A stretch of DNA of 64,000 bases from a plasmid. The stretch lies in NCBI RefSeq assembly GCF_054482525.1, contig NZ_JBTHVG010000003.1; one strand, 5' to 3'. Shown one piece after another: positions 8,487-45,554 of the stretch. The notes below the pieces were generated by a model. The model was not told the origin of the DNA and searched no databases. It was given only the letters and a program-made list of their open reading frames with translations. Every line of letters starts with the position of its first letter. The stretch's first letter is position 1. The position numbers and the translations under genes were made by a program.

Positions 8487-8510
8487 TATTTACCTCACCA
8501 TTTTTGATTT

Positions 8511-11911: not shown

Positions 11912-11974
11912 TAAATGAAGCCAGGTTGATACACTTCTCTGCATCCCCTGGCACATAAGAACTTCTGCGGACAT

Positions 11975-12178: not shown

Positions 12179-12190
12179 TTTTTCTCCATT

Positions 12191-13510: not shown

Positions 13511-13532
13511 AGTAGTCTCCTAAACAGGAAGT

Positions 13533-13700: not shown

Positions 13701-13760
13701 GGTTGACCTCTGACATTATTACAACAATCTTAAGCATTTAAATTGATGAAGGAGCTCAGG

Positions 13761-20570: not shown

Positions 20571-20608
20571 GGGGAGCCCGCAGAATTCGGAAAAAATCGT
20601 ACGCTAAG
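20571..20608. repeat. 38-bp terminal inverted repeat of a Tn1721/Tn21-subgroup transposon
   Basis: GGGGAGCCCGCAGAATTCGGAAAAAATCGTACGCTAAG, matching the Tn1721 IR as I recall it; the tnpA stop lies within it. Confidence 0.7.
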
Positions 20609-22120
20609 GTTTTCCGGGCATCCGTAAGGGCCGAAACTTCCCGTCTTCCAGTCTGCGGCTCTGCCGCCAGACGTAATCGCCGGTTAGGTTGATGTGCTCC
20701 CAGCCCAGCGGCGACAGGAATTGCAGCAGCTCGCCGTCCACCGGCTTGCCGGCCTCGACCAACCCCTGGGTGGCGCGTTCCAGGTACACCGTGTTCCACA
20801 GCACGATAGCCGCCGTCACCAGGTTGAGGCCGCTGGCCCGGTAGCGCTGCTGCTCGAAGCTCCGATCCCTGATTTCCCCAAGGCGGTTGAAGAACACCGC
20901 CCTGGCCAGCGAGTTGCGCGCCTCACCTTTGTTCAGGCCGGCATGCACGCGGCGGCGCAGTTCAACACTTTGCAGCCAGTCCAGGATGAACAGCGTGCGC
21001 TCGATCCGGCCCAGCTCGCGCAGGGCCACGGCCAGTCCGTTCTGGCGCGGGTAGCTGCCGAGCTTGCGCAGCATCAGCGAGGCGGTGACGGTGCCCTGCT
21101 TGATCGAGCTGGCCAGGCGCAGGATGTCGTCCCAGTGGGCACGCACGTGCTTGATGTTCAGGGTGCCGCCGATCAGCGGGCGCAACGTCGGGTAGGCTTG
21201 CACGCCCTGCGGCACGTACAGCTTGGTTTCGCCGAGGTCGCGGATGCGCGGCGCGAAGCGGAAGCCTAGCAGGTGCATCAGGGCAAAGACGTGATCGGTG
21301 AAGCCGGCCGTGTCGGTGTAGTGCTCCTCGATCCGCAGGTCGGACTCGTGGTACAGCAGGCCGTCGAGCACATAGGTGGAATCGCGGACGCCGACATTCA
21401 CCACGCGGGTGCTGAACGGCGCGTACTGGTCGGAGATATGGGTATAGAACAGCCGTCCCGGCTCGCTACCGTACTTCGGGTTGACGTGCCCGGTGCTCTC
21501 GCCCCGGCCACCCGCGCGGAAGCGCTGGCCATCGGAGGATGAGGTCGTGCCGTCGCCCCAGTGGGCGGCAAAGGCGTGGCGATACTGGTGGTTGACCAGC
21601 TCGGCCAAGGCCGCCGAATAGGTTTCGTCGCGGATGTGCCAGGCTTGCAGCCAGGACAGCTTGGCGTAGGTCAGGCCGGGGCTCGACTCGGCCATCTTGG
21701 TCAGCCCGAGGTTGATCGCATCACCGAGGATTGCGGACAGCAGCAACGTCCTGTCTTTGGCCTCGGCCCCGTCCTTCAAGTGGGTGAAGTGGCGGCTGAA
21801 GCCCGTCCAGTCGTCCACGTCCATCAGCAGTTCGGTGATCTTGATGCGCGGCAGTAACTGGCTGGTTTGGTCGATCAGCGCCTGCGCCCGATCCGGCACC
21901 GCCGCATCCAGCGGGGTGATTTTCAGCCCTGACTCGGTGAGGATGGCATCGGGCAGCTCGTTGTCCTTGGCCAGGCGGGTGACGGTGGCCAACTGCTCGT
22001 CCAGCAGCTGCAAACGCTCTTCCAGGTACTGGTCGCTGTTCGGGTTGATCGCCAGGGGCAGGGCCTGCTCGCGCTTGAGTGCGGCGAACTTCTCGGCCGG
22101 CAGCAGGTAGTCGTCGAAGT
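20604..22120 (-). pseudogene. tnpA: Tn1721/Tn21-family transposase, 3' fragment truncated by IS26
   Basis: High-GC ORF encoding the C-terminal ~505 aa of a Tn3-family TnpA; reading frame runs into IS26 at 22121. Confidence 0.85.
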
Positions 22121-22940
22121 GGCACTGTTGCAAATAGTCGGTGGTGATAAACTTATCATCCCCTTTTGCTGATGGAGCTGCACATGAACCCATTCAAAGG
22201 CCGGCATTTTCAGCGTGACATCATTCTGTGGGCCGTACGCTGGTACTGCAAATACGGCATCAGTTACCGTGAGCTGCAGGAGATGCTGGCTGAACGCGGA
22301 GTGAATGTCGATCACTCCACGATTTACCGCTGGGTTCAGCGTTATGCGCCTGAAATGGAAAAACGGCTGCGCTGGTACTGGCGTAACCCTTCCGATCTTT
22401 GCCCGTGGCACATGGATGAAACCTACGTGAAGGTCAATGGCCGCTGGGCGTATCTGTACCGGGCCGTCGACAGCCGGGGCCGCACTGTCGATTTTTATCT
22501 CTCCTCCCGTCGTAACAGCAAAGCTGCATACCGGTTTCTGGGTAAAATCCTCAACAACGTGAAGAAGTGGCAGATCCCGCGATTCATCAACACGGATAAA
22601 GCGCCCGCCTATGGTCGCGCGCTTGCTCTGCTCAAACGCGAAGGCCGGTGCCCGTCTGACGTTGAACACCGACAGATTAAGTACCGGAACAACGTGATTG
22701 AATGCGATCATGGCAAACTGAAACGGATAATCGGCGCCACGCTGGGATTTAAATCCATGAAGACGGCTTACGCCACCATCAAAGGTATTGAGGTGATGCG
22801 TGCACTACGCAAAGGCCAGGCCTCAGCATTTTATTATGGTGATCCCCTGGGCGAAATGCGCCTGGTAAGCAGAGTTTTTGAAATGTAAGGCCTTTGAATA
22901 AGACAAAAGGCTGCCTCATCGCTAACTTTGCAACAGTGCC
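22121..22940 (+). mobile_element. tnp26: IS26 copy 1 (canonical Tnp26)
   Basis: 820 bp bounded by GGCACTGTTGCAAA terminal repeats; Tnp26 coding 22184-22888; residue 184 is Gly. Confidence 0.95.
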
Positions 22941-23529
22941 CGCTGTACCAAATGCGGGACAACGTAAGCACTACATTTCGCTCATCGCCGGCCCAGTCGG
23001 GCTGCGAGTTCCATAGCTTCAAGGTTTCCCTCAGCGCCTCGAATAGATCCTGTTCAGGAACCGGGTCAAAGAATTCCTCCGCTGCCGGACCTACCAAGGC
23101 AACGCTATGTTCTCTTGCTTTTGTAAGCAGGATAGCTAGATCAATGTCGATCATGGCTGGCTCGAAGATACCCGCAAGAATGTCATTGCGCTGCCATTCT
23201 CCAAATTGCAGCTCGCGCTTAGCCGGATAACGCCACGGGATGATGTCGTCATGCACGACAAGGGTGACTTCTATAGCGCGGAGCGTCTCGCTCTCGCCAG
23301 GGAAAGCCGAAGCCTCCATAAGATCATTGAGCAATGCTCGCCGCGTCGTTTCATCAAGCTTTACGGCCACAGTAACCAACAAATCAATATCGCTGTATGG
23401 CTTCAGGCCGCCATCCACTGCGGAGCCGTACAAATGCACGGCCAGCAACGTTGATTCCAGATGGCGCTCAATGACGCTTAGCACCTCTGATAGTTGGTTC
23501 GAAATTTCGATGGTCACCGCTTCCCTCAT
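22941..23529 (-). pseudogene. aadA2: aadA2 aminoglycoside adenylyltransferase, 3'-truncated by IS26
   Basis: N-terminal ~196 aa match the AadA2 sequence as recalled (MREAVTIEISNQLSEVLSVIERHLEST...); sequence diverges after RIWYS at the IS26 junction. Confidence 0.85.
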
Positions 23530-23534
23530 GATGT

Positions 23535-23825
23535 CTAACGGGCGAGGTAAGCCGACCGCAGAATGCGGGTCGGCTTGACCGAAATGTTAGAACCAGAAGC
23601 CAAAACGGATAACTTGAATTTGGCGACGGGCGCTAACCGTGAAAAAACGCTGCGCCACCGAGGCGGCACAGCACTGCAAAAACGATAGCTGCTTGCGCTT
23701 GCTACGCAAGGGCTAGAGGCCAAAAAGACTGAAAACCTGCGCAGCCCATGCAGGCGAAGCCCGGAAAAAAGGCAAAACAGGCACTGAATAACGCCTGAAA
23801 AGCTAAATGCCGTTTGAATAAACAT
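23535..23825 (-). CDS. gcuF: gene cassette of unknown function (gcuF/orfF)
   Basis: 96-aa ORF lying between dfrA12 and aadA2 in the classic dfrA12-orfF-aadA2 array; assigned by position. Confidence 0.5.
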   Translation of the reverse strand: MFIQTAFSFSGVIQCLFCLFSGLRLHGLRRFSVFLASSPCVASASSYRFCSAVPPRWRSVFSRLAPVAKFKLSVLASGSNISVKPTRILRSAYLAR

Positions 23826-23936
23826 GAGCTAAATAAAGCTGGGTTTCAGTGGTGCTAACGTTGGACGTAACGAGAGCCGGAGCGCAGCGGAGGGAACCAA
23901 AATGCGCAGCATTTTGGCGTCCCGTTGACGGAATGG

Positions 23937-24434
23937 TTAGCCGTTTCGACGCGCATAAACGGAGTGGGTGTACGGAATTACAGCTTGAATGGTTTCGGTT
24001 GAGACAAGCTCGAATTCTGTTTCGTTGAGCATTGGGAAGAAGGCGTCACCCTCGAAGGTTTGATGTACCTCAGATAGAAACACGCCGTGGGCGTGAGGTA
24101 GTGCCAGAGTGTATATCTCAGCTCCGCCCGCGACGTAGAGTTCATTGCCGAGTTCGGATGCCAAAGCGATAGCGTGCGACAGCGTTGAAACAACTACGCA
24201 GCCAGTGGCGCGGTAGTTAGCTTGGCGTGAGATTACCAATGTGTGACGGTTCGGTAGAGGCTTGCCGATAGACTCAAAGGTCTTTCGCCCCATGACAACG
24301 ACTTTTCCCTCAGTGAGTCTGCGAAAAATCTTCTGCTCACCCGGAATTTTCCAGGGGATATTAGGACCATTGCCAATAACCCGATTGGCTCCCATCGCAG
24401 CAACGAGATAAATGCGTACTGATTCCGAGTTCAT
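23937..24434 (-). CDS. dfrA12: trimethoprim-resistant dihydrofolate reductase DfrA12
   Basis: 165-aa ORF matching the DfrA12 sequence as recalled; first cassette next to attI1. Confidence 0.9.
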   Translation of the reverse strand: MNSESVRIYLVAAMGANRVIGNGPNIPWKIPGEQKIFRRLTEGKVVVMGRKTFESIGKPLPNRHTLVISRQANYRATGCVVVSTLSHAIALASELGNELYVAGGAEIYTLALPHAHGVFLSEVHQTFEGDAFFPMLNETEFELVSTETIQAVIPYTHSVYARRNG

Positions 24435-24578
24435 ATGGCTAACTTTGTTTTAGGGCGACTGCCCTGCTGCGTAACATCGTTGCTGCTCCATAACATCAAA
24501 CATCGACCCACGGCGTAACGCGCTTGCTGCTTGGATGCCCGAGGCATAGACTGTACAAAAAAACAGTCATAACAAGCC
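24435..24578. promoter_or_regulatory. attI1 and cassette promoter region of a class 1 integron
   Basis: Position between the intI1 start and the first cassette; inferred, not motif-checked. Confidence 0.45.
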
Positions 24579-24775
24579 ATGAAAACCGCCACTGCGCCGT
24601 TACCACCGCTGCGTTCGGTCAAGGTTCTGGACCAGTTGCGTGAGCGCATACGCTACTTGCATTACAGTTTACGAACCGAACAGGCTTATGTCAACTGGGT
24701 TCGTGCCTTCATCCGTTTCCACGGTGTGCGTCACCCGGCAACCTTGGGCAGCAGCGAAGTCGAGGCATTTCTGTC
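24579..24775 (+). pseudogene. intI1: class 1 integrase IntI1, N-terminal ~65 codons, truncated by IS26
   Basis: [66 protein letters not shown] then IS26 at 24776. Confidence 0.85.
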
Positions 24776-25595
24776 GGCACTGTTGCAAATAGTCGGTGGT
24801 GATAAACTTATCATCCCCTTTTGCTGATGGAGCTGCACATGAACCCATTCAAAGGCCGGCATTTTCAGCGTGACATCATTCTGTGGGCCGTACGCTGGTA
24901 CTGCAAATACGGCATCAGTTACCGTGAGCTGCAGGAGATGCTGGCTGAACGCGGAGTGAATGTCGATCACTCCACGATTTACCGCTGGGTTCAGCGTTAT
25001 GCGCCTGAAATGGAAAAACGGCTGCGCTGGTACTGGCGTAACCCTTCCGATCTTTGCCCGTGGCACATGGATGAAACCTACGTGAAGGTCAATGGCCGCT
25101 GGGCGTATCTGTACCGGGCCGTCGACAGCCGGGGCCGCACTGTCGATTTTTATCTCTCCTCCCGTCGTAACAGCAAAGCTGCATACCGGTTTCTGGGTAA
25201 AATCCTCAACAACGTGAAGAAGTGGCAGATCCCGCGATTCATCAACACGGATAAAGCGCCCGCCTATGGTCGCGCGCTTGCTCTGCTCAAACGCGAAGGC
25301 CGGTGCCCGTCTGACGTTGAACACCGACAGATTAAGTACCGGAACAACGTGATTGAATGCGATCATGGCAAACTGAAACGGATAATCGGCGCCACGCTGG
25401 GATTTAAATCCATGAAGACGGCTTACGCCACCATCAAAGGTATTGAGGTGATGCGTGCACTACGCAAAGGCCAGGCCTCAGCATTTTATTATGGTGATCC
25501 CCTGGGCGAAATGCGCCTGGTAAGCAGAGTTTTTGAAATGTAAGGCCTTTGAATAAGACAAAAGGCTGCCTCATCGCTAACTTTGCAACAGTGCC
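24776..25595 (+). mobile_element. tnp26: IS26 copy 2 (canonical), left arm of a Tn4352-like unit
   Basis: 820 bp with 14-bp terminal repeats; Tnp26 coding 24839-25543; Gly184. Confidence 0.95.
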
Positions 25596-25732
25596 AATTT
25601 ATGAGTAAAGGATTATGTCCACGATAAGCACCTGGGTCGATTCCTGGGAGGCGGCCATGAGGGTAGGGAAGCGCCGTCCCGTCAAGTCAGCGTAATGCTC
25701 TGCCAGTGTTACAACCAATTAACCAATTCTGA

Positions 25733-26548
25733 TTAGAAAAACTCATCGAGCATCAAATGAAACTGCAATTTATTCATATCAGGATTATCAATACCATATT
25801 TTTGAAAAAGCCGTTTCTGTAATGAAGGAGAAAACTCACCGAGGCAGTTCCATAGGATGGCAAGATCCTGGTATCGGTCTGCGATTCCGACTCGTCCAAC
25901 ATCAATACAACCTATTAATTTCCCCTCGTCAAAAATAAGGTTATCAAGTGAGAAATCACCATGAGTGACGACTGAATCCGGTGAGAATGGCAAAAGCTTA
26001 TGCATTTCTTTCCAGACTTGTTCAACAGGCCAGCCATTACGCTCGTCATCAAAATCACTCGCATCAACCAAACCGTTATTCATTCGTGATTGCGCCTGAG
26101 CGAGACGAAATACGCGATCGCTGTTAAAAGGACAATTACAAACAGGAATCGAATGCAACCGGCGCAGGAACACTGCCAGCGCATCAACAATATTTTCACC
26201 TGAATCAGGATATTCTTCTAATACCTGGAATGCTGTTTTCCCGGGGATCGCAGTGGTGAGTAACCATGCATCATCAGGAGTACGGATAAAATGCTTGATG
26301 GTCGGAAGAGGCATAAATTCCGTCAGCCAGTTTAGTCTGACCATCTCATCTGTAACATCATTGGCAACGCTACCTTTGCCATGTTTCAGAAACAACTCTG
26401 GCGCATCGGGCTTCCCATACAATCGATAGATTGTCGCACCTGATTGCCCGACATTATCGCGAGCCCATTTATACCCATATAAATCAGCATCCATGTTGGA
26501 ATTTAATCGCGGCCTCGAGCAAGACGTTTCCCGTTGAATATGGCTCAT
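25733..26548 (-). CDS. aph(3')-Ia: aminoglycoside 3'-phosphotransferase APH(3')-Ia
   Basis: 271-aa ORF matching the Tn903 kanamycin phosphotransferase sequence as recalled. Confidence 0.95.
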   Translation of the reverse strand: MSHIQRETSCSRPRLNSNMDADLYGYKWARDNVGQSGATIYRLYGKPDAPELFLKHGKGSVANDVTDEMVRLNWLTEFMPLPTIKHFIRTPDDAWLLTTAIPGKTAFQVLEEYPDSGENIVDALAVFLRRLHSIPVCNCPFNSDRVFRLAQAQSRMNNGLVDASDFDDERNGWPVEQVWKEMHKLLPFSPDSVVTHGDFSLDNLIFDEGKLIGCIDVGRVGIADRYQDLAILWNCLGEFSPSLQKRLFQKYGIDNPDMNKLQFHLMLDEFF

Positions 26549-26635
26549 AACACCCCTTGTATTACTGTTTATGTAAGCAGACAGTTTTATTGTTCATGAT
26601 GATATATTTTTATCTTGTGCAATGTAACATCAGAG

Positions 26636-27455
26636 GGCACTGTTGCAAATAGTCGGTGGTGATAAACTTATCATCCCCTTTTGCTGATGGAGCTGCACAT
26701 GAACCCATTCAAAGGCCGGCATTTTCAGCGTGACATCATTCTGTGGGCCGTACGCTGGTACTGCAAATACGGCATCAGTTACCGTGAGCTGCAGGAGATG
26801 CTGGCTGAACGCGGAGTGAATGTCGATCACTCCACGATTTACCGCTGGGTTCAGCGTTATGCGCCTGAAATGGAAAAACGGCTGCGCTGGTACTGGCGTA
26901 ACCCTTCCGATCTTTGCCCGTGGCACATGGATGAAACCTACGTGAAGGTCAATGGCCGCTGGGCGTATCTGTACCGGGCCGTCGACAGCCGGGGCCGCAC
27001 TGTCGATTTTTATCTCTCCTCCCGTCGTAACAGCAAAGCTGCATACCGGTTTCTGGGTAAAATCCTCAACAACGTGAAGAAGTGGCAGATCCCGCGATTC
27101 ATCAACACGGATAAAGCGCCCGCCTATGGTCGCGCGCTTGCTCTGCTCAAACGCGAAGGCCGGTGCCCGTCTGACGTTGAACACCGACAGATTAAGTACC
27201 GGAACAACGTGATTGAATGCGATCATGGCAAACTGAAACGGATAATCGGCGCCACGCTGGGATTTAAATCCATGAAGACGGCTTACGCCACCATCAAAGG
27301 TATTGAGGTGATGCGTGCACTACGCAAAGGCCAGGCCTCAGCATTTTATTATGGTGATCCCCTGGGCGAAATGCGCCTGGTAAGCAGAGTTTTTGAAATG
27401 TAAGGCCTTTGAATAAGACAAAAGGCTGCCTCATCGCTAACTTTGCAACAGTGCC
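26636..27455 (+). mobile_element. tnp26: IS26 copy 3 (canonical), right arm of a Tn4352-like unit
   Basis: 820 bp; Tnp26 coding 26699-27403; Gly184; direct orientation with copy 2, total span 2680 bp. Confidence 0.95.
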
Positions 27456-27664
27456 ATAAGAATATCATCAATAAAATTGAGTGTTGCTCTGTGGATAACT
27501 TGCAGAGTTTATTAAGTATCATTGCAGCAAAGATGAAATCAATGATTTATCAAAAATGATTGAAAGGTGGTTGTAAATAATGTTACAATGTGTGAGAAGC
27601 AGTCTAAATTCTTCGTGAAATAGTGATTTTTGAAGCTAATAAAAAACACACGTGGAATTTAGGG
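27456..27664 (+). mobile_element. ISEcp1 3'-end remnant with right IR, truncated by IS26
   Basis: Ends in ACGTGGAATTTAGGG followed by a ~41-bp spacer before blaCTX-M, the usual ISEcp1 promoter-providing arrangement. Confidence 0.8.
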
Positions 27665-27687
27665 AATACTGATGTAACACGGATTGA

Positions 27688-28581
<894 letters not shown>

Positions 28582-28583
28582 CT

Positions 28584-28932
28584 GGTTTTGTTGAATAAAT
28601 CGAACTTTTGCTGAGTTGAAGGATCAGATCACGTATCTTCCCGACAACGCAGACCGTTCCGTGGCAAAGCAAAAGTTCAAAATCACCAACTGGCCCACCT
28701 ACAATAAAGCCCTCATCAACCGTGGCTCCATAACTTTCTGGCTGGATGATGAAGCTATTCAGGCCTGGTATGAGTCAGCAACACCTTCTTCACGAGGCAG
28801 ACCTCAGCGCTATTCTGACCTTGCCATCACGACTGTGCTGGTCATTAAACGCGTATTCAGGCTGACCCTGCGCGCTGCGCAGGGCTTTATTGATTCCATT
28901 TTTTCTCTGATGAACGTTCCGCTACGCTGCCC
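28584..28932 (+). mobile_element. IS903-like fragment (left IR plus transposase N-terminus)
   Basis: Begins GGTTTTGTTGAATAAATCG; encodes MKDQITYLPDNADRSVAKQKF..., the IS903 transposase N-terminus; breaks off near 28932. Confidence 0.8.
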
Positions 28933-29192
28933 GGTGTAATGTCGGTGCTGATTTGGTCTTCAATAAGGCGATTTTTAGCCCGCTTTTTCCGGGGGGATGA
29001 AATGTTATTGGATTGCTAAATGATTTCAAAAAAGGGGTAACATAGAGCGGGGATTAGTGTGGCGAGGCGCAGGTTTCCGATGGCAGGCTAAACGCAAAAA
29101 ATGCGCTTTTTAGCCGGTGATGAGGTGAGGCCGGGAGGGGATGCGTCGCCGATCACAGTTTACAACAGGGTTTGATAACGGGAGGAAAAGTC

Positions 29193-29609
29193 ATGCTGCA
29201 GGGATTGAATCATCTGACGCTGGCGGTCAGCGATCTGGCGTCAAGCCTGGCATTTTATCAGCAGTTACCTGGAATGCGCCTGCACGCCAGCTGGGATAGC
29301 GGAGCCTATCTCTCCTGTGGGGCGCTGTGGCTGTGCTTGTCGCTGGATGAGCAGCGGCGTAAAACGCCCCCTCAGGAAAGCGACTATACCCACTACGCCT
29401 TCAGCGTGGCGGAAGAAGAGTTTGCCGGGGTGGTGGCTCTGCTGGCGCAGGCGGGGGCTGAGGTATGGAAAGATAACCACAGTGAAGGGGCGTCTTACTA
29501 TTTTCTCGACCCTGACGGCCATAAGCTGGAGCTGCATGTGGGGAATCTGGCGCAGCGGCTGGCCGCCTGTCGCGAACGCCCCTACAAGGGGATGGTCTTT
29601 TTTGATTGA
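29193..29609 (+). CDS. fosA3: fosfomycin-resistance glutathione transferase FosA3
   Basis: Start at internal Met ([15 protein letters not shown]...); 138-aa product matching FosA3 as recalled. Confidence 0.85.
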
Positions 29610-29613
29610 CGGG

Positions 29614-30132
29614 TTAGTTCAGCTTACTGCCGGATTTCAACGTGCAGATCCACAGCGGTGAATTGATAGAGCTGAGCAAGATAGCCTTTTCGTTGAGCTT
29701 CTGAGCGTTGAGAAACAGCCCGTCGTGGCTGTCGGACATCTCGCGCATAAAGTAGTCGAAAATCACGTTCGGCGATTCATCAATCGAGGAGGCGCTCGAT
29801 TCCCACTGATTGATGCGGTAATGACGCTCGGTGGCCGAGATGCGTTTGCTGCTGTAGGTAAACTTCACGTAGCGTTGCAGGTAGAGCCAGCCGGCGGCGG
29901 AGTCGGTGTAACCTTCGACCACCATCGAGCCTTTACCCTGCGCGCCAAAATTGAAGTGAATATTGCCGTTAACGTTCTCTTTGTCCATGTTCTCAAAGCG
30001 CATGATGCCCTTAGTGGAACAGCTCATGACACCCGCGTTGTCGGCAGGCAGCAGCCGCCAGGCGCTAAACGCGGCGGCGGCAATAAATACCAGAACGCAG
30101 AGGGCAAAGAACGGACGCGGCGCGAGTCTCAT
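29614..30132 (-). CDS. hypothetical exported protein linked to fosA3
   Basis: 172-aa ORF with N-terminal signal/TM segment, in the position of orf1 of the fosA3 module. Confidence 0.5.
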   Translation of the reverse strand: MRLAPRPFFALCVLVFIAAAAFSAWRLLPADNAGVMSCSTKGIMRFENMDKENVNGNIHFNFGAQGKGSMVVEGYTDSAAGWLYLQRYVKFTYSSKRISATERHYRINQWESSASSIDESPNVIFDYFMREMSDSHDGLFLNAQKLNEKAILLSSINSPLWICTLKSGSKLN

Positions 30133-30831
30133 TACGGCTTCCAGGAGTAGTAAAAGTAGTTATCGCAATAGCTGAACGGGTTATCTTCATGCATGGCGCA
30201 GTGGGCAAGGAACACGCGCCCCAGCCCGTTGGTTTCGAGCCGATCGCCGTAGAAGAAAAGAAAACGTTCACCGGGTTTACAGGCAATATTCAGCCGCTGG
30301 CGTACCTCATCGAAGTTTTTGCCGTAGGACTCTTCACTGACCGAACGTCGCATTTCATCGCTGGCCAGCAGTTCGCACTGGCTATGGCTGAGGCGGGTCA
30401 GCGCGATAGGCTGGGATTCACTGATGCCGACCAGACTGAAGGCAACCAGAAGCAGGGCAATGGTGAGCAAGCAGGCTCCGGCCATGTACCAGCACATCCC
30501 GCGAGCATGTGCGGAGCGCGGTGCGTCTGGCGTTGTCGTAACGGGCGGCGGTTCGGCAGGCGTCTGTTGTGGTGAAACCGGCGGCGCGTCGTCCAGCGCT
30601 TCGATAATGACCTCGGGATTAAGCTGCAAATAGCCGCGCGAGACGGTGACGATGATGTTATCGACGCCGTAATGGCGAAAGGTCTTCCGCAGCATGCTGA
30701 GATACTGATTCAGATTGCTGTTGGATGAGGTTAATCCATTGTCATCCCAGACTTTTTTCAGAACATCTTCCCGGCTGACAATCTCGGTATGGCGCAGAAA
30801 ATAGTTAAACAGGGCGCTGGCGGTGAGGGAT
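30132..30831 (-). pseudogene. winged-helix regulator gene, 5'-truncated by IS26
   Basis: ORF N-terminus MNKTKGCLIANFATVP is encoded inside IS26 copy 4; the native part has a transmembrane segment and a C-terminal DNA-binding-like region. Confidence 0.5.
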
Positions 30832-31651
30832 GGCACTGTTGCAAAGTTAGCGATGAGGCAGCCTTTTGTCTTATTCAAAGGCCTTACATTTCAAAAACTC
30901 TGCTTACCAGGCGCATTTCGCCCAGGGGATCACCATAATAAAATGCTGAGGCCTGGCCTTTGCGTAGTGCACGCATCACCTCAATACCTTTGATGGTGGC
31001 GTAAGCCGTCTTCATGGATTTAAATCCCAGCGTGGCGCCGATTATCCGTTTCAGTTTGCCATGATCGCATTCAATCACGTTGTTCCGGTACTTAATCTGT
31101 CGGTGTTCAACGTCAGACGGGCACCGGCCTTCGCGTTTGAGCAGAGCAAGCGCGCGACCATAGGCGGGCGCTTTATCCGTGTTGATGAATCGCGGGATCT
31201 GCCACTTCTTCACGTTGTTGAGGATTTTACCCAGAAACCGGTATGCAGCTTTGCTGTTACGACGGGAGGAGAGATAAAAATCGACAGTGCGGCCCCGGCT
31301 GTCGACGGCCCGGTACAGATACGCCCAGCGGCCATTGACCTTCACGTAGGTTTCATCCATGTGCCACGGGCAAAGATCGGAAGGGTTACGCCAGTACCAG
31401 CGCAGCCGTTTTTCCATTTCAGGCGCATAACGCTGAACCCAGCGGTAAATCGTGGAGTGATCGACATTCACTCCGCGTTCAGCCAGCATCTCCTGCAGCT
31501 CACGGTAACTGATGCCGTATTTGCAGTACCAGCGTACGGCCCACAGAATGATGTCACGCTGAAAATGCCGGCCTTTGAATGGGTTCATGTGCAGCTCCAT
31601 CAGCAAAAGGGGATGATAAGTTTATCACCACCGACTATTTGCAACAGTGCC
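30832..31651 (-). mobile_element. tnp26: IS26 copy 4 (canonical)
   Basis: 820 bp; Tnp26 coding 30884-31588 on minus strand; Gly184. Confidence 0.95.
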
Positions 31652-31801
31652 CGTCATACTTTCGCCTTCATGATCTGCAACGAGTTGATCAATAATAAGC
31701 GAAATTCGATAACGAAATTCGATATAAATCTAGAAAAAAATACCTCTATGTGTACTACGCAGTTTTAGCTGTGGCTTTCACAGGAGCACGCTTACTTACG
31801 G

Positions 31802-31839
31802 CTTAGCGTGCTTTATTTTCCGTTTTCTGAGGCGATCCC
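31802..31839. repeat. Tn21-subgroup-like 38-bp terminal inverted repeat
   Basis: Reverse complement reads GGGATCGCCTCAGAAAACGGAAAATAAAGCACGCTAAG, close to the Tn21 IR as recalled; abuts the orf5 break point. Confidence 0.5.
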
Positions 31840-32016
31840 TAGGAGCTCGGATCTCAGGACGAAGGTCTCCGCGAATGTCCGGTCGATCCGCGCGACGTCC
31901 CAGGCGGGCGTTCCCTTGGCGGACATCCACGCCGCAGCGTCGTGCATCAGCCGCACAACCTCGTCGATATCACCCGAGCAGGCGACCCGAACGTTCGGAG
32001 GCTCCTCGCTGTCCAT
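31840..32016 (-). pseudogene. orf5 (GNAT family) of the class 1 integron 3' conserved segment, truncated
   Basis: MDSEEPPNVRVACSGDIDEVVRLMHDAAAWMSAKGTPAWDVARIDRTFAETFVLRSELL then divergence. Confidence 0.7.
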
Positions 32017-32143
32017 TCGCTCCCCTGGCGCGGTATGAACCGCCGCCTCATAGTGCAGTTTGATCCTGACGAGCCCAGCATGTCTGCGCCCACCTTCGCG
32101 GAACCTGACCAGGGTCCGCTAGCGGGCGGCCGGAAGGTGAATG

Positions 32144-32983
32144 CTAGGCATGATCTAACCCTCGGTCTCTGGCGTCGCGACTGCGAAATTTCGCGAGGGT
32201 TTCCGAGAAGGTGATTGCGCTTCGCAGATCTCCAGGCGCGTGGGTGCGGACGTAGTCAGCGCCATTGCCGATCGCGTGAAGTTCCGCCGCAAGGCTCGCT
32301 GGACCCAGATCCTTTACAGGAAGGCCAACGGTGGCGCCCAAGAAGGATTTCCGCGACACCGAGACCAATAGCGGAAGCCCCAACGCCGACTTCAGCTTTT
32401 GAAGGTTCGACAGCACGTGCAGCGATGTTTCCGGTGCGGGGCTCAAGAAAAATCCCATCCCCGGATCGAGGATGAGCCGGTCGGCAGCGACCCCGCTCCG
32501 TCGCAAGGCGGAAACCCGCGCCTCGAAGAACCGCACAATCTCGTCGAGCGCGTCTTCGGGTCGAAGGTGACCGGTGCGGGTGGCGATGCCATCCCGCTGC
32601 GCTGAGTGCATAACCACCAGCCTGCAGTCCGCCTCAGCAATATCGGGATAGAGCGCAGGGTCAGGAAATCCTTGGATATCGTTCAGGTAGCCCACGCCGC
32701 GCTTGAGCGCATAGCGCTGGGTTTCCGGTTGGAAGCTGTCGATTGAAACACGGTGCATCTGATCGGACAGGGCGTCTAAGAGCGGCGCAATACGTCTGAT
32801 CTCATCGGCCGGCGATACAGGCCTCGCGTCCGGATGGCTGGCGGCCGGTCCGACATCCACGACGTCTGATCCGACTCGCAGCATTTCGATCGCCGCGGTG
32901 ACAGCGCCGGCGGGGTCTAGCCGCCGGCTCTCATCGAAGAAGGAGTCCTCGGTGAGATTCAGAATGCCGAACACCGTCACCAT
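32144..32983 (-). CDS. sul1: sulfonamide-resistant dihydropteroate synthase Sul1
   Basis: 279-aa product from internal Met [26 protein letters not shown]..., matching Sul1 as recalled. Confidence 0.95.
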
Positions 32984-33185
32984 GGCGTCGGCCTCCGCAG
33001 CGACTTCCACGATGGGGATCGGGCGAGCAAAAAGGCAGCAATTATGAGCCCCATACCTACAAAGCCCCACGCATCAAGCTTTTGCCCATGAAGCAACCAG
33101 GCAATGGCTGTAATTATGACGACGCCGAGTCCCGACCAGACTGCATAAGCAACACCGACAGGGATGGATTTCAGAACCAGAGAAC
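32977..33185 (-). pseudogene. qacEdelta1: qacEdelta1 efflux gene, additionally 5'-truncated
   Basis: C-terminal ~68 aa match QacEdelta1 ([22 protein letters not shown]...); stop overlaps the sul1 start as usual; N-terminal part replaced. Confidence 0.75.
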
Positions 33186-33189
33186 ATGT

Positions 33190-33327
33190 CATTGTACTGG
33201 AAGGCGCATTACAACTGCGGCTGGGGGATGAGTGGCACACCGTTTCTGCCGGGGAATCCCTGCGCTTCCATGCGGATATCCCGCACGCTTACGCCAATCC
33301 CGGTAAGGCCATTGTGACAGGGGTCTG
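33190..33327 (+). pseudogene. C-terminal fragment of a cupin-domain protein gene
   Basis: Hand translation ...[43 protein letters not shown], with the stop supplied inside the Tn2/Tn3 IR. Confidence 0.4.
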
Positions 33328-33357
33328 ACGCTCAGTGGAACGAAAACTCACGTTAAG
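33320..33357. repeat. Tn2/Tn3 38-bp terminal inverted repeat
   Basis: GGGGTCTGACGCTCAGTGGAACGAAAACTCACGTTAAG. Confidence 0.85.
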
Positions 33358-34655
33358 CAACGTTTTCTGCCTCTGACGCCTCTTTTAATGGTCTCAGATG
33401 TCCTTTGGTCACCAGTTCTGCCAGCGTGAAGGAATAATGGCCGAGCATATTGATATGTCCGTGGCAAAGCGGGGAGAGGCGTGCGATATCTTCATCATTC
33501 AGTGTTTCACCCTGCGCCCGGAGATGATCCAGGGCTGCCTGCATATAAATAGTGTTCCATAACACGACGGCGTTAGTGACCAGCCCCAGTGTGCCCAGTT
33601 GATCTTCCTGACCGTCGGTATATCGTTTTCTTATCTCACCTTTTTGACCGTGACAGATGGCTCTGGCAACGGCATGGCGACTTTCTCCCCGATTAAGCTG
33701 GGTCAGAATGCGCCGGCGGTAATCTTCATCATCAATATAATTAAGCAGATACAGCGTTTTGTTGATGCGCCCCACTTCAATGATTGCCTGAGTCAGTCCG
33801 GAAGGACGTTCACTTTTCAGCAATGAACGGACCAGCACTGAAACCTGTACTTTGCCCAGCTTCAGGGAGCCAGCGGTCCGGATCATTTCGTCCCACTGAA
33901 GGACTATTTTTCGGGGATCTGATTGCCCTCTGGCAATATCATTCAGCACGCCATAGTCGGCATCATGGTCCATTCGCCAGAAAACCGAAGCACCGGCATC
34001 AGCCAGGCGTGGAGAAAACTGGTATCCCAGCAGCCAGAAAAGGCCAAAGACAAGTTCGCTGGCACCTGCTGTATCGGTCATAATTTCGGTTGGATTCAGC
34101 CCGGTCTCCTGTTCCAGAAGACCTTCCAGCACAAAGATAGAGTCCCTCAGCGTCCCCGGTATAACGATGCCATGAAAGCCGGAATACTGATCGGACACAA
34201 AGTTGTACCAGGTGATCCCTCTGTTATTACCAAAGTATTTGCGGTTCGGTCCGGCATTGATTGTTCTGACTGGCGTAACAAAGCGCATTCCATCTGCAGA
34301 TGCCACTTCTCCTCCACCCCATATCTGTGCCAGTGGCAGCGTTGCCTGAAAATCAACCAGTCTGGCATTAGCGCTGGTGATAGTTTCAGCCCGCAGATAG
34401 TTCGCTTTTGTCCAGTTCAGCCGGTGTCGGGTCAGTGCAGGAACATTTGATCTGATCAGTGGTTCCAGACCGATATTGCAGGCTTCAGCCATCAGCACGG
34501 CGCTGATGCTGACGGGCAGATCATCAACTCTGGCACTGGCTTCACTAGCATGGAAAAACTCATCAGCAAATCCGGTATGGGCGTTAATTTCGAGCAGCAA
34601 CTCCGTTAAATCCACCGGAGGGAGTAGATCACTGATCATTTTGCTCAGTCGTTTC
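33353..34655 (-). pseudogene. tnpA: Tn2/Tn3 transposase, 3' fragment truncated by IS26
   Basis: 435-aa ORF with Tn3-type TnpA C-terminal sequence ending at the IR; cut at 34656 by IS26 copy 5. Confidence 0.85.
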
Positions 34656-35475
34656 GGCACTGTTGCAAATAGTCGGTGGTGATAAACTTATCATCCCCTT
34701 TTGCTGATGGAGCTGCACATGAACCCATTCAAAGGCCGGCATTTTCAGCGTGACATCATTCTGTGGGCCGTACGCTGGTACTGCAAATACGGCATCAGTT
34801 ACCGTGAGCTGCAGGAGATGCTGGCTGAACGCGGAGTGAATGTCGATCACTCCACGATTTACCGCTGGGTTCAGCGTTATGCGCCTGAAATGGAAAAACG
34901 GCTGCGCTGGTACTGGCGTAACCCTTCCGATCTTTGCCCGTGGCACATGGATGAAACCTACGTGAAGGTCAATGGCCGCTGGGCGTATCTGTACCGGGCC
35001 GTCGACAGCCGGGGCCGCACTGTCGATTTTTATCTCTCCTCCCGTCGTAACAGCAAAGCTGCATACCGGTTTCTGGGTAAAATCCTCAACAACGTGAAGA
35101 AGTGGCAGATCCCACGATTCATCAACACGGATAAAGCGCCCGCCTATGGTCGCGCGCTTGCTCTGCTCAAACGCGAAGGCCGGTGCCCGTCTGACGTTGA
35201 ACACCGACAGATTAAGTACCGGAACAACGTGATTGAATGCGATCATGGCAAACTGAAACGGATAATCAACGCCACGCTGGGATTTAAATCCATGAAGACG
35301 GCTTACGCCACCATCAAAGGTATTGAGGTGATGCGTGCACTACGCAAAGGCCAGGCCTCAGCATTTTATTATGGTGATCCCCTGGGCGAAATGCGCCTGG
35401 TAAGCAGAGTTTTTGAAATGTAAGGCCTTTGAATAAGACAAAAGGCTGCCTCATCGCTAACTTTGCAACAGTGCC
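34656..35475 (+). mobile_element. tnp26: IS26 copy 5 (Tnp26 G184N variant)
   Basis: 820 bp; Tnp26 coding 34719-35423; RIINATLGF instead of RIIGATLGF, plus one silent change. Confidence 0.95.
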
Positions 35476-35625
35476 GCCCCAGCAGCATCTCCAGCTGTGA
35501 ACGCTGTTCGGCTGACGGTATCAGTGCCAGTTTGTTCCACAGGCGCAACGTCGCCTTTTCCCTTACCTCTGAAATCAACCGGGTCAGCGTAGTGGCTCCG
35601 GGGAGAATAATAGTCTATCCCGGCA

Positions 35626-36003
35626 TTGCCAGTCGGGGATATTAAAAAGAGTATAGGTTTTTATTGCGATAAACTAGGTTTCACTTTGGTTCACCATGAA
35701 GATGGATTCGCAGTTCTAATGTGTAATGAGGTTCGGATTCATCTATGGGAGGCAAGTGATGAAGGCTGGCGCTCTCGTAGTAATGATTCACCGGTTTGTA
35801 CAGGTGCGGAGTCGTTTATTGCTGGTACTGCTAGTTGCCGCATTGAAGTAGAGGGAATTGATGAATTATATCAACATATTAAGCCTTTGGGCATTTTGCA
35901 CCCCAATACATCATTAAAAGATCAGTGGTGGGATGAACGAGACTTTGCAGTAATTGATCCCGACAACAATTTGATTAGCTTTTTTCAACAAATAAAAAGC
36001 TAA
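35626..36003 (+). CDS. bleO: bleomycin-binding protein, BleO-like
   Basis: Low-GC ORF matching the pUB110-type BleO sequence as recalled (PVGDIKKSIGFYCDKLGFTLVHHEDGFAVLMCNEVRIHLWEA...); the track starts it at a TTG, so the true N-terminus is uncertain. Confidence 0.75.
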   Translation: MPVGDIKKSIGFYCDKLGFTLVHHEDGFAVLMCNEVRIHLWEASDEGWRSRSNDSPVCTGAESFIAGTASCRIEVEGIDELYQHIKPLGILHPNTSLKDQWWDERDFAVIDPDNNLISFFQQIKS

Positions 36004-36020
36004 AATCTATTATTAATCTG

Positions 36021-36085
36021 TTCAGCAATCGGGCGCGATTGCTGAATAAAAGATACGAGAGACCTCTCTTGTATCTTTTTTATTT
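36021..36085 (+). terminator. tandem hairpins with T-run downstream of bleO
   Basis: TTCAGCAATC-GGGCGC-GATTGCTGAA then AGATACGAGAGA-CC-TCTCTTGTATCT followed by TTTTTTATTTT. Confidence 0.55.
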
Positions 36086-36090
36086 TGAGT

Positions 36091-36185
36091 GGTTTTGTCC
36101 GTTACACTAGAAAACCGAAAGACAATAAAAATTTTATTCTTGCTGAGTCTGGCTTTCGGTAAGCTAGACAAAACGGACAAAATAA
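36091..36185. repeat. long imperfect palindrome in the bleO module
   Basis: TTTTGTCCGTT...CCGAAAGAC...GTCTGGCTTTCGG...AACGGACAAAA, nested inverted repeats over ~95 bp. Confidence 0.4.
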
Positions 36186-36322
36186 AAATCTAAATATGCT
36201 TGAACAACTTGTAACTTAAATTCATAACTGTATTTTGCCATAAAAAATGACCTCCCATAAGTTAGATTTTTGGTCTAACTTATGGGGGTCAGTTCATTCT
36301 ACACTTGGGCTGCATGTTTTGA

Positions 36323-36715
36323 TTAATTATCTAATATCTCCGGATCTCCTGTAAAGGAATATAAAACTGCCTGCATGTTTTTCAAATAAAATACGGTGAA
36401 TTTCCCATCATCAGCGCTATACCAATCTCTCAAAAACGGATTTGCTTCAAGCATTGCTTCCCTTGCTTCCACGGTATCATCAATTACGGCTTCGCCGGTG
36501 AGCCGAATCCATTTTCCTTTTGCCATACCTGAGACTTCCACCTTTGAATTTGCCAATAACTGCTGATAAACTTTTTTCTGATTGGTTGTACCAAGATAGA
36601 CCTTGCCATTCCTCTCCATGGCTGCATTAAACGGTCTGACCCTTGGCTGGTCTCCTTCAACGGTTGCAAAATAAAAAGTTTTTGCTTCATTTAAAAAATC
36701 AACAACTTGACTCAT
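36323..36715 (-). CDS. pyridoxamine 5'-phosphate oxidase-like (split-barrel flavin-binding) protein
   Basis: 130-aa low-GC ORF; family assignment from general resemblance, unverified. Confidence 0.5.
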   Translation of the reverse strand: MSQVVDFLNEAKTFYFATVEGDQPRVRPFNAAMERNGKVYLGTTNQKKVYQQLLANSKVEVSGMAKGKWIRLTGEAVIDDTVEAREAMLEANPFLRDWYSADDGKFTVFYLKNMQAVLYSFTGDPEILDN

Positions 36716-36759
36716 CCTTTTTTACCTCCATAAATAAATTTTTCTTTACTTTTCTTTGA

Positions 36760-36997
36760 CCTAAATTCCACGTGCATTTTTTATTAGCTTAAAAGAACAC
36801 TATTTCACGAAGAATTTAAACTGATACTCCCACATTGTAACATTATTTACCACCACCTTTCAATCTTTTTCAATAAATTATTGATTGCAACTTTTGAGTA
36901 AAGATACTTATTAAACCCTGCAAGTTATCCACAGAGCAACACTCGATTTTCAAGATGATATCTTTATTATACCAGACATTTTTCATACACTTCCTTG
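36760..36997 (-). mobile_element. divergent ISEcp1-like (IS1380 family) 3'-end remnant, truncated by IS26
   Basis: Reverse complement aligns at roughly 85% identity with the ISEcp1 remnant at 27456-27664 and ends in ACGTGGAATTTAGG about 45 bp upstream of the 36715 start codon. Confidence 0.6.
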
Positions 36998-37817
36998 GGC
37001 ACTGTTGCAAAGTTAGCGATGAGGCAGCCTTTTGTCTTATTCAAAGGCCTTACATTTCAAAAACTCTGCTTACCAGGCGCATTTCGCCCAGGGGATCACC
37101 ATAATAAAATGCTGAGGCCTGGCCTTTGCGTAGTGCACGCATCACCTCAATACCTTTGATGGTGGCGTAAGCCGTCTTCATGGATTTAAATCCCAGCGTG
37201 GCGTTGATTATCCGTTTCAGTTTGCCATGATCGCATTCAATCACGTTGTTCCGGTACTTAATCTGTCGGTGTTCAACGTCAGACGGGCACCGGCCTTCGC
37301 GTTTGAGCAGAGCAAGCGCGCGACCATAGGCGGGCGCTTTATCCGTGTTGATGAATCGTGGGATCTGCCACTTCTTCACGTTGTTGAGGATTTTACCCAG
37401 AAACCGGTATGCAGCTTTGCTGTTACGACGGGAGGAGAGATAAAAATCGACAGTGCGGCCCCGGCTGTCGACGGCCCGGTACAGATACGCCCAGCGGCCA
37501 TTGACCTTCACGTAGGTTTCATCCATGTGCCACGGGCAAAGATCGGAAGGGTTACGCCAGTACCAGCGCAGCCGTTTTTCCATTTCAGGCGCATAACGCT
37601 GAACCCAGCGGTAAATCGTGGAGTGATCGACATTCACTCCGCGTTCAGCCAGCATCTCCTGCAGCTCACGGTAACTGATGCCGTATTTGCAGTACCAGCG
37701 TACGGCCCACAGAATGATGTCACGCTGAAAATGCCGGCCTTTGAATGGGTTCATGTGCAGCTCCATCAGCAAAAGGGGATGATAAGTTTATCACCACCGA
37801 CTATTTGCAACAGTGCC
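36998..37817 (-). mobile_element. tnp26: IS26 copy 6 (Tnp26 G184N variant)
   Basis: 820 bp; Tnp26 coding 37050-37754 on minus strand; Asn184. Confidence 0.95.
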
Positions 37818-38073
37818 AGTTTTATTGTTACATTTAAATCCACGCCGGGATCGCGGTTTTTTATCCCCCCCCTGGACCGCACATAAAGTGCAACAATTAT
37901 TCTTGCACTTAGTTAAGCGCCTTCCTACAATCGCCGCGATAGTGTATTCGAAATTGTTACAGTTTTGTGGCGATGATCGACACAAATGGCCTTAAGCCAG
38001 CCCGGACAAAGGAAGTGGCGCGGCTTCTCACGCTGCGTCTTGCCCGGCGGCTACATTTACCGGAATAAAAATA

Positions 38074-39249
38074 ATGAGCCTGCAAAAAACCTGGGGAAAC
38101 ATTCACCTGACCGCGCTCGGCGCGATGATGCTCTCCTTTCTGCTCGTCGGCTGCGACGACAGCGTCGCACAGAATGCTGCGCCTCCCGCCCCGACGGTCA
38201 GCGCCGCTAAGGTGCTGGTGAAGTCGATCAGTCAGTGGGATAGTTTTAACGGTCGCATTGAAGCGGTGGAGAGCGTTCAGCTTCGCCCTCGCGTCTCGGG
38301 ATACATTGATAAAGTGAATTACACTGACGGCCAGGAGGTGAAAAAGGGCCAGGTGCTGTTCACGATAGATGACAGAACCTATCGCGCCGCGCTGGAGCAG
38401 GCGCAGGCGGCGTTGGCAAGAGCCAAAACGCAGGCCAGCCTCGCGCAAAGCGAGGCGAACCGCACCGATAAATTAGTCCATACCAACCTCGTCTCCCGTG
38501 AAGAGTGGGAGCAGCGCCGGTCAGCCGCGGTTCAGGCGCAGGCCGACGTTCGCGCCGCGCAGGCGGCGGTGGATGCCGCGCAGCTTAACCTCGACTTCAC
38601 CAAAGTGACCGCCCCTATTGACGGCCGCGCCAGCCGGGCGCTGATCACCAGCGGTAACCTGGTCACCGCGGGCGACACCGCCAGCGTGCTCACCACCCTG
38701 GTCTCGCAAAAGACGGTGTACGTCTACTTTGACGTCGACGAGTCAACCTACCTCCACTATCAAAACCTCGCCCGCCGCGGGCAAGGCGCGTCCAGCGATA
38801 ATCAGGCGCTCCCGGTGGAGATTGGCCTGGTGGGCGAGGAGGGTTACCCCCACCAGGGCAAAGTGGATTTTCTCGATAATCAGTTAACGCCGAGTACCGG
38901 CACCATCCGCATGCGTGCGCTGCTGGATAACTCGCAGCGTCTGTTCACGCCGGGGCTGTTTGCCCGCGTGCGTCTGCCGGGCAGCGCAGAGTTCAAAGCC
39001 ACGCTGATCGACGACAAAGCGGTACTGACCGATCAGGATCGTAAATACGTCTATATCGTTGATAAAGATGGTAAAGCACAGCGCCGCGACATTACCCCAG
39101 GGCGGCTGGCAGACGGTTTACGCATCGTTCAGAAGGGGTTGAATCCTGGGGATAGCGTCATCGTCGACGGCTTACAAAAAGTGTTTATGCCGGGTATGCC
39201 GGTTAACGCCAAAACCGTTGCCATGACCTCCAGCGCCACCCTTAACTGA
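38074..39249 (+). CDS. oqxA: RND efflux periplasmic adaptor OqxA
   Basis: 391-aa ORF with lipoprotein signal (LLVGC) and membrane-fusion-protein sequence matching OqxA as recalled. Confidence 0.95.
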   Translation: MSLQKTWGNIHLTALGAMMLSFLLVGCDDSVAQNAAPPAPTVSAAKVLVKSISQWDSFNGRIEAVESVQLRPRVSGYIDKVNYTDGQEVKKGQVLFTIDDRTYRAALEQAQAALARAKTQASLAQSEANRTDKLVHTNLVSREEWEQRRSAAVQAQADVRAAQAAVDAAQLNLDFTKVTAPIDGRASRALITSGNLVTAGDTASVLTTLVSQKTVYVYFDVDESTYLHYQNLARRGQGASSDNQALPVEIGLVGEEGYPHQGKVDFLDNQLTPSTGTIRMRALLDNSQRLFTPGLFARVRLPGSAEFKATLIDDKAVLTDQDRKYVYIVDKDGKAQRRDITPGRLADGLRIVQKGLNPGDSVIVDGLQKVFMPGMPVNAKTVAMTSSATLN

Positions 39250-45535: not shown

Positions 45536-45554
45536 TGAGAATTCGAGTGTAGCT

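Follow-up and report, generated by a model that had tools for sequence, protein, structure and literature searches.

Two class 1 integron remnants in an IS26-rich IncHI2 multiresistance region probably inverted between IS26 copies

The 64,000-nt stretch of plasmid DNA analyzed here (contig NZ_JBTHVG010000003.1 of assembly GCF_054482525.1), referred to as the window, carries two separate pieces of class 1 integron sequence, a 5' piece with the dfrA12, gcuF, and aadA2 cassettes and a 3' piece with sul1. The structure is a pair of integron remnants inside a mosaic of IS26 copies and not a class 1 integron, because its integrase is non-functional and its 3' conserved segment (3'-CS) is detached. 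The region as a whole is very probably an IS26-rich multiresistance region of an IncHI2 plasmid from the pHXY0908/pHNSHP45-2/pXDL-CTX-M-14 family, in which the common layout has been secondarily inverted between two IS26 copies.

An intact dfrA12-gcuF-aadA2-qacEdelta1-sul1-orf5 integron, that of Citrobacter portucalensis p1_085039 (NZ_CP043007; L003), served as the reference and was compared with the window by BLAST. Exactly two matches were obtained, both at 100% identity and on the minus strand: reference positions 5001–6835 correspond to window 24775–22941 (1835 bp), and 7342–8687 to window 33184–31839 (1346 bp). Beyond these two matches to L003, no further integron sequence was found in the 64-kb window. 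A preliminary description of this DNA had claimed two non-adjacent integron remnants and had suggested a comparison with intact dfrA12-gcuF-aadA2 integrons; the comparison bears the claim out, with the 5' piece at precisely the coordinates proposed (22941–24775) and the 3' piece present but shifted by 1 nt from the proposed 31840–33185. The description had further put a distance of about 7 kb between the two parts, with the 3' segment on the cassette strand yet on the wrong side of the array, and this holds, as the piece lies on the minus strand, upstream in the direction of cassette transcription. Relative to the reference, 817 bp of intI1, the 3' part of orf5, and a 506-bp stretch are absent, the last comprising the final 203 bp of aadA2, its attC, the start of the 3'-CS, and the first 140 nt of qacEdelta1. 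IS26 copies at 22121–22940 and 24776–25595 abut aadA2 and intI1, respectively, confirming that both genes are cut precisely by IS26. The idea of an integron split by IS26 is upheld for the 5' piece but incomplete as regards the 3' piece, which is bounded by a TnchrA remnant on one side and by part of a cupin-domain gene, followed by Tn2, on the other.

Of the features that define a class 1 integron, attI1 and the cassette promoter Pc are retained upstream of the cassettes and are 100% identical to those of intact integrons. The dfrA12 and gcuF cassettes are complete, also at 100% identity, while that of aadA2 is missing attC and the final 203 bp of its coding sequence. A functional intI1 is missing, since only 197 bp are left, and no 3'-CS follows the cassettes in a contiguous and co-oriented manner.

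The arrangement of the pieces finds its counterpart in pXDL-CTX-M-14 (NZ_CP043034), an IncHI2 plasmid of E. coli from Hangzhou. All modules and IS26 junctions of the window, from the Tn1721 tnpA remnant through oqxAB, are present in this plasmid, and all inter-IS26 modules match at 99.9–100%. The backbone with the Tn1721 remnant, the sul1 module, bleO, and oqxAB have the same orientation in both, whereas the integron piece, aph(3')-Ia, and CTX-M-14/fosA3 form a three-module block that runs the opposite way. Both orientations of the block are therefore found in otherwise identical contexts with the same outer flanks. In the window, the block lies between the IS26 copies at 22121–22940 and 30832–31651, an inverted pair of 820 nt with 100% complementarity; in pXDL-CTX-M-14, the truncated aadA2 (aadA2-delta) and the piece with the truncated chrA (chrA-delta) and sul1 face each other across one IS26. 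We propose that the 9.5-kb unit 22121–31651 has flipped once between these identical inverted copies, most likely by homologous recombination within IS26, which would be the simplest mechanism because no junction, IS copy, or duplication is gained in the process. Such a flip would explain why the 3' piece lies on the far side of the cassettes at its present distance while still on the same strand. The window is thus a new permutation, an orientation isomer assembled solely from known junctions, and an isomer of this kind is a trivial consequence of inverted IS26 repeats.

Two observations weigh against this reading. No matching pair of 8-bp target duplications, direct or inverted, is present among the 14 flanks of the seven IS26 copies in the window, and consequently no transposition event can be reconstructed; moreover, segments between 820-bp inverted repeats can be mis-oriented in short-read assembly. 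With regard to the first, the mechanism of IS26 inversion has been documented (He et al. 2015, PMC4471558), as have IS26 inversion units in IncHI2 plasmids (PMC9019673). As in the window, the segment between oppositely oriented IS26 copies is inverted in these published cases and parts of a gene or operon are separated; however, they were diagnosed by inverted 8-bp target duplications, of which the window has none, and the flip is therefore better explained by recombination between pre-existing IS26 copies. IS26 inversions by the replicative route are common (PMC4471558, PMC9019673), but it is very unlikely that the flip relative to pXDL-CTX-M-14 came about by Tnp26-catalyzed intramolecular replicative transposition instead of homologous recombination. 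That route would insert an additional IS26 copy at another target site and leave inverted 8-bp duplications, whereas the two isomers have equal numbers of IS26, the same junctions, and no matching 8-bp flanks.

With regard to the second, the wrong-side layout could result from an arbitrary placement of the 7.9-kb segment, either as an artefact of assembly or because two isomers co-exist. The segment is indeed bracketed by perfect 820-bp inverted IS26 repeats, the unflipped form exists as pXDL-CTX-M-14, and no record colinear with window 21500–38500 was found in PLSDB or among complete E. coli RefSeq genomes. We nevertheless consider this explanation unlikely, given that the junction of the truncated Tn1721 tnpA, IS26, and aadA2-delta seen in the window recurs in four independently assembled complete plasmids, the only PLSDB records that hold it. 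Furthermore, the CTX-M-14/fosA3 unit is found in both orientations among relatives, which makes it clear that real inversions take place at these IS26 copies, and the window sequence itself shows no signal of a mis-join.

The flip accounts for the order of the modules, while the origin of the pieces from one integron or two is a matter of older history. An origin of both from a single integron is plausible, and we lean toward it. It would involve an older and less certain event, in which an IS26 lying 187 bp into TnchrA transposed replicatively into aadA2 on the same molecule and inverted the 3'-CS. This event would leave aadA2-delta at the right inverted repeat (IRR) and chrA-delta at the left inverted repeat (IRL) of a shared IS26, and the ends do lie as this model predicts, with aadA2-delta abutting IRR and chrA-delta abutting IRL. 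The far end of the sul1 piece would later have been replaced by the block of cupin fragment, Tn2, IS26-v1, bleO, and oqxAB. The reciprocal product of the inversion would consist of a complete qacEdelta1, the aadA2 attC, the 3' part of aadA2, CGCTGTAC, and then IS26, with a predicted junction of TTGCAACAGTGCC-GTACAGCG-CAATAACCGGC.

A putative precursor was modeled as a synthetic query consisting of complete qacEdelta1, sul1, the truncated orf5 (orf5-delta), the 187 bp of chrA-delta, and 300 bp of IS26. It returned single-piece matches at 100%, including one in the IncHI2 plasmid pZ0117ECO0133-1 (NZ_CP098184), whose intact intI1-dfrA12-gcuF-aadA2-3'-CS integron ends in the identical orf5-delta/TnchrA(187 bp)/IS26 junction. 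Both this plasmid and p1_085039, which carries the PcS variant of the promoter, match the window pieces in cassette array, attI1, and 3'-CS sequence; they retain full intI1, aadA2, and qacEdelta1, with a 3'-CS contiguous and co-oriented with the cassettes. Beside the junction, at 8764–14572 of pZ0117ECO0133-1, chrA-delta(187 bp)/IS26 leads into an mph(A)-mrx-mphR-IS6100 block that runs opposite to the usual order, chrA-padR-IS6100-mphR-mrx-mph(A)-IS26. Provided that this order holds, an IS26 inversion with chrA as its target would fit the pattern and would explain the presence of IS26 187 bp into TnchrA.

Several results speak against a firm decision for a single origin. The reciprocal junction (IS26 end, GTACAGCG, and the 3' part of aadA2) occurs in 0 of the 4,330 PLSDB records with that part of aadA2; it was likewise not found by exact-pattern scans of genome and metagenome contig collections, a search that is uninformative since the positive control, aadA2-delta/IS26, was not found there either. 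The integron of pZ0117ECO0133-1 has the PcW-TGN-10 promoter and that of the window PcS, a difference of 3 nt, and the sul1 piece ends on its far side at a G184N variant of IS26, not at a replicative copy of the standard element. Finally, the chrA-delta(187 bp)/IS26 junction also follows aac(6')-Ib-cr...arr-3 arrays (pSAL4681-1, pC1147) and a dfrA1-aadA1 array in Proteus. As the junction is shared by several arrays, 3'-CS copies have been exchanged by recombination, and the pieces could stem from different integrons; in this plasmid family, such copies have clearly been swapped between arrays by homologous recombination.

It is accordingly conceivable, though we judge it the less probable history, that two different class 1 integrons were juxtaposed by homologous recombination between IS26 copies or by insertion of a translocatable unit. 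This would agree with the use of the 187-bp junction by other arrays, with the absence of the reciprocal aadA2 junction from PLSDB, and with the fact that the sole intact dfrA12 integron ending in the 187-bp junction carries another Pc variant. It would also agree with the qacEdelta1 end, which passes into unrelated DNA (cupin, Tn2) with no IS terminus in between, and with pHXY0908-type plasmids, which hold two sul1/orf5-delta/TnchrA copies cut independently by IS26 (at 91 bp and 187 bp). The second copy in pHXY0908, behind aac(6')-Ib-cr...arr-3, has its TnchrA cut back to 91 bp and lies against the opposite end of IS26, and a simple derivation of the sul1 piece from it was rejected on these grounds. 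On the other hand, the two pieces share one IS26 in 76 plasmids, with the ends oriented as a one-step inversion within one integron would predict, and the identical chrA-delta(187 bp)/IS26 junction does terminate an intact dfrA12-gcuF-aadA2 integron in an IncHI2 plasmid. In addition, the arr-3-linked pSAL4681-1 (152 kb versus 249 kb) looks like the product of a secondary deletion by sul1–sul1 recombination. The shared-IS26 adjacency of aadA2-delta and chrA-delta, the arrangement seen in most relatives, was counted in PLSDB, where the 76 records include pHXY0908, pHNSHP45-2, pHK0653, and pHNLDF400. The corresponding counts for single junctions are about 94 records for aadA2-delta/IS26, 703 for intI1-delta/IS26, and 157 for IS26/chrA-delta.

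The promoter of the cassettes is situated differently from what had been assumed. The Pc of class 1 integrons sits within the intI1 coding sequence, and the PcS variant is defined as TTGACA-17-TAAACT (PMC2791841, Table 1). The preliminary description had made expression of the cassettes contingent on what promoter is left in the attI1 region (144 bp) and had suggested identifying the retained variant. Its length for the region between the start codons of intI1 and dfrA12 is correct (5' conserved segment/attI1 region, 24435–24578, minus strand), yet Pc lies intact outside it, in the intI1 stub, at 24666–24694 on the minus strand, and is PcS (TTGACA-17 nt-TAAACT). The -35 hexamer occupies 24694–24689 and the -10 hexamer 24671–24666, 81 bp from the IS26 boundary, and a promoter scan of 22900–24900 reported this as its sole sigma-70-like site. 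The only promoter element within the 144-bp spacer is P2, whose hexamers TTGTTA (24575–24570) and TACAGT (24555–24550) are separated by a 14-nt spacer, the inactive form; active P2 has a 17-nt spacer (PMC2791841, Table 1). The intI1 stub (intI1-delta; 24579–24775, plus strand) preserves 197 bp from the gene start up to the IS26 cut, or about 66 of the 337 codons, and encodes N39 (VNW), that is, the IntI1 R32_N39 form discussed in PMC2791841. As the PcS sequence is fully intact in the stub, dfrA12 and gcuF retain the strongest common cassette promoter, and, judging from the sequence, both are presumably still driven by it. Public dfrA12-gcuF-aadA2 integrons occur in two forms, which differ over the 1835 bp only at the three Pc-defining nucleotides, at window 24693, 24673, and 24668 (as compared with L013 and L015): the PcS form of the window, L001, L003, and L004, and the PcW form with an extended TGN -10 of L013 and L015 (pZ0117ECO0133-1).

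The proteins encoded by the 5' piece are affected to different degrees. The intI1 stub matches the NCBIfam integron integrase model only over positions 1–68 of 337, with 143 bits against a cut-off of 435; because only about 66 intI1 codons are left, the integron would no longer be able to gain or lose cassettes on its own. dfrA12 (23937–24434, minus strand) is complete with 165 aa and scores 385 bits against the cut-off of 360 of the NCBIfam model trim_DfrA12, and the gcuF (orfF, DUF1010) cassette open reading frame (23535–23825, minus strand) is also complete, matching the intact integron at 100%. In aadA2-delta (22941–23529, minus strand), the first 589 bp, or 196 of 263 codons, remain and are 100% identical to intact aadA2; the nucleotidyltransferase domain is kept, while Pfam AadA_C is matched only over positions 2–43 of 103. 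The reading frame runs on into IS26 for 35 codons and thereby forms an AadA2::IS26 fusion of 231 aa (22834–23529, minus strand), which lies above the NCBIfam ANT_3pp_I equivalog cut-off (393 versus 375 bits). The fusion, without 67 C-terminal residues, is probably inactive; that it retains or alters adenylyltransferase activity would be most unlikely.

The 3' piece begins, on the minus strand, with the remnant of qacEdelta1 (32977–33184), of which the last 208 of 348 bp are present but neither the initial 140 nt nor the qacE promoter region ahead of them, so that a protein profile scan finds only the C-terminal half of QacE-delta1. It continues with sul1 (32144–32983; 279 aa), which is complete and scores 641 bits against the NCBIfam Sul1 cut-off of 600, and with 178 of the 501 bp of orf5 (31839–32016), delimited by BLAST to the intact integron. 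At 31839/31838, orf5-delta is truncated by a 187-bp TnchrA remnant (31652–31838, minus strand), in which a terminal inverted repeat of the Tn21 family is followed by the beginning of the chrA module, and which precedes the IS26 at 30832–31651. This 187-bp remnant is contiguous with chrA in many plasmids, and "TnchrA, itself truncated by IS26" has been described in pHNSHP45-2-type IncHI2 plasmids (PMC5645526).

At its other end, qacEdelta1 is abutted at nt 141 by an internal fragment of a cupin-domain gene (136 bp, 33185–33320, plus strand), and inspection of this junction (33184/33185) revealed no IS end there. The cupin fragment is in turn interrupted at 33320/33321 by the Tn2/Tn3 terminal inverted repeat (33321–33358), within which falls position 33357, where the preliminary description had ended the locus; the repeat and the 3' part of tnpA (33321–34655, minus strand) extend to the cut by IS26-v1 and are identical to their counterpart in pOLA52. 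The combined junction of truncated qacEdelta1, cupin fragment, and Tn2 occurs in 154 PLSDB records, always in the same context. For the source gene of the cupin fragment, a word-indexed protein search returned solely the fragment itself, and an exhaustive HMMER search gave only distant cupins of at most 56% identity, apart from one match of 88% over 24 residues to a 44-aa protein. The original oqxAB plasmid, pOLA52, matches window 33319–37000 at 99.95%, with the match starting at the Tn2 inverted repeat; as it matches only from that repeat onward, it was rejected as a source of the fragment.

The loss of the qacEdelta1 start bears on the expression of sul1. A qacE-cassette promoter has been described upstream of qacEdelta1 (PMC8876359), and no sigma-70-like site was reported in 32900–34700 at the threshold of the scan. 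sul1 thus appears to be severed from both Pc and the promoter of the qacE region, and its expression would rest on read-through or on an unrecognized promoter. It could further be imagined that the 9.5-kb IS26-bracketed unit acts as a reversible switch that alters sul1 expression, with populations holding both isomers: in the common orientation, read-through from PcS would cross IS26 antisense into orf5-delta and sul1, whereas in the window orientation it would enter the Tn1721 remnant instead. We regard this idea as improbable in the extreme.

The main value of these observations lies in annotation and epidemiology. The remnants are better not reported as an integron, for they represent a dead platform from which dfrA12 would, on sequence grounds, still be expressed by the strong PcS. 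The aadA2 fragment should not count as a streptomycin/spectinomycin determinant, and it sets an annotation trap, as pipelines may name the AadA2::IS26 fusion an AadA enzyme on account of its score above the cut-off. Since both usual promoters are lost, the prediction of a sulfonamide phenotype should not rest on this sul1 alone. The region also illustrates once more that IncHI2 plasmids can lose, invert, and rearrange resistance modules by means of their IS26 copies, which matters for the structure-based comparison or typing of plasmids.

Seven IS26 copies are present in the window, four standard and three variant. The standard copies are mutually identical. Those at 22121–22940 (820 bp, plus strand; IRR toward aadA2-delta, IRL toward a Tn1721-type tnpA remnant) and 30832–31651 (minus strand; IRL toward the TnchrA remnant) form the left and right arms of the inverted pair. 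Of the other two, both on the plus strand, the copy at 24776–25595 has its IRL at intI1-delta, and the copy at 26636–27455 separates the aph(3')-Ia and CTX-M-14/fosA3 modules. The copies at 22121–22940 and 24776–25595 are in direct orientation and flank the 1835-bp integron piece, as in an IS26 pseudo-compound transposon or translocatable unit, and those at 24776 and 26636 flank aph(3')-Ia, likewise in direct orientation; no matching 8-bp flanks that would attest to movement as a unit are present. Within the invertible segment, the aph(3')-Ia module is a Tn4352-type central segment of 1040 bp (25596–26635, minus strand), and the CTX-M-14/fosA3 module (27456–30831, plus strand; 3,376 bp) comprises truncated ISEcp1, blaCTX-M-14, truncated IS903, fosA3, orf1, and orf2; an identical 3,376-bp fragment has been described for pHNSHP45-2 (PMC5645526).

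The three IS26-v1 copies lie at 34656–35475 (plus strand), 36998–37817 (minus strand), and 43024–43843 (minus strand) and share the same 3-nt difference from the standard form (position 459 G>A and 613-614 GG>AA), which results in the Tnp26 substitution G184N. IS26-v1 has been reported to be more active (Pong 2019, as cited in PMC9019673). Its copies flank the pOLA52-derived bleO and oqxAB modules; around the integron, aphA1, and CTX-M-14/fosA3 modules, the four IS26 copies are of the standard form. A further inverted repeat of 208 nt with 86% identity has IS26-cut arms at 27456–27663 and 36760–36967; the former is the ISEcp1 remnant upstream of blaCTX-M-14, and the latter, beside the oqxAB IS26, is by position a related IS1380-family remnant. 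This second arm is probably the 'delta-ISEnca1' of PMC5645526.

To the left of the multiresistance region, a Tn1721-type 38-bp inverted repeat, GGGGAGCCCGCAGAATTCGGAAAAAATCGTACGCTAAG (20571–20608), and the 3' part of tnpA occupy 20571–22120; this tnpA is cut by IS26 at 22120/22121 and constitutes the fixed left anchor of the region in this plasmid sub-lineage. Farther to the left, a complete Tn3-family transposase gene (1913–4900; 995 aa) is adjoined by genes for an S-formylglutathione hydrolase (5731–6567) and a class III alcohol/S-(hydroxymethyl)glutathione dehydrogenase (7071–8180), and window 1913–8180 may represent a transposon for formaldehyde detoxification within the IncHI2 backbone. 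Coverage of window 1–22120 reaches 80% or more in a single PLSDB record.

The flanking backbone is that of pHNSHP45-2-type IncHI2 plasmids, an assignment made from the flanks, as the replicon lies outside the window: window 1–22120 is 98–99.4% identical to IncHI2A-typed plasmids, and the right flank (43844–46000) matches the backbone of pHXY0908 and pHNSHP45-2. The plasmids pHXY0908, pHNSHP45-2, pHK0653, and pHNLDF400/pHNYJC8, described as sequence type 3 (ST3)-type IncHI2 oqxAB plasmids in PMC5645526, have junctions identical to those of the window along their module string from aphA1 to oqxAB. The whole string is present in pHXY0908 (KM877269), pHNSHP45-2 (KU341381), and p12519A. It runs through aphA1, IS26, intI1-delta, dfrA12, gcuF, aadA2-delta, IS26, and chrA-delta (187 bp) and then through orf5-delta, sul1, truncated qacEdelta1, cupin, truncated Tn2, IS26-v1, bleO, IS26-v1, and oqxAB, and in these relatives, too, the 3'-CS is inverted relative to the cassettes. 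Unlike the window, pHXY0908/pHNSHP45-2-type plasmids hold a sul3-type integron, floR, aac(3)-IV, and hph between the modules, and their dfrA12 piece is not inverted; pXDL-CTX-M-14, in turn, resembles a pHNSHP45-2 from which about 26.5 kb flanked by two direct IS26 copies have been lost. Other relatives show further permutations. The CTX-M-14/fosA3 unit lies beside the sul1 module, in either orientation, in MK962305 and pSH16G4909; aphA1 lies beside the sul1 module without the dfrA12 piece in p23AR1101A; and in p13C1065T-1 and pWW012, where the sul3 integron is inverted, the dfrA12 piece adjoins the Tn1721 remnant. For pHNSHP45-2-type plasmids, PMC5645526 lists "oqxAB, sul1, delta-aadA2, dfrA12, aphA1..." and ascribes the differences among plasmids to IS26 recombination or replicative transposition. 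The layout that underlies the window is thus already known and has repeatedly been reported in IncHI2 plasmids of the ST3 type, from China as well as from elsewhere.

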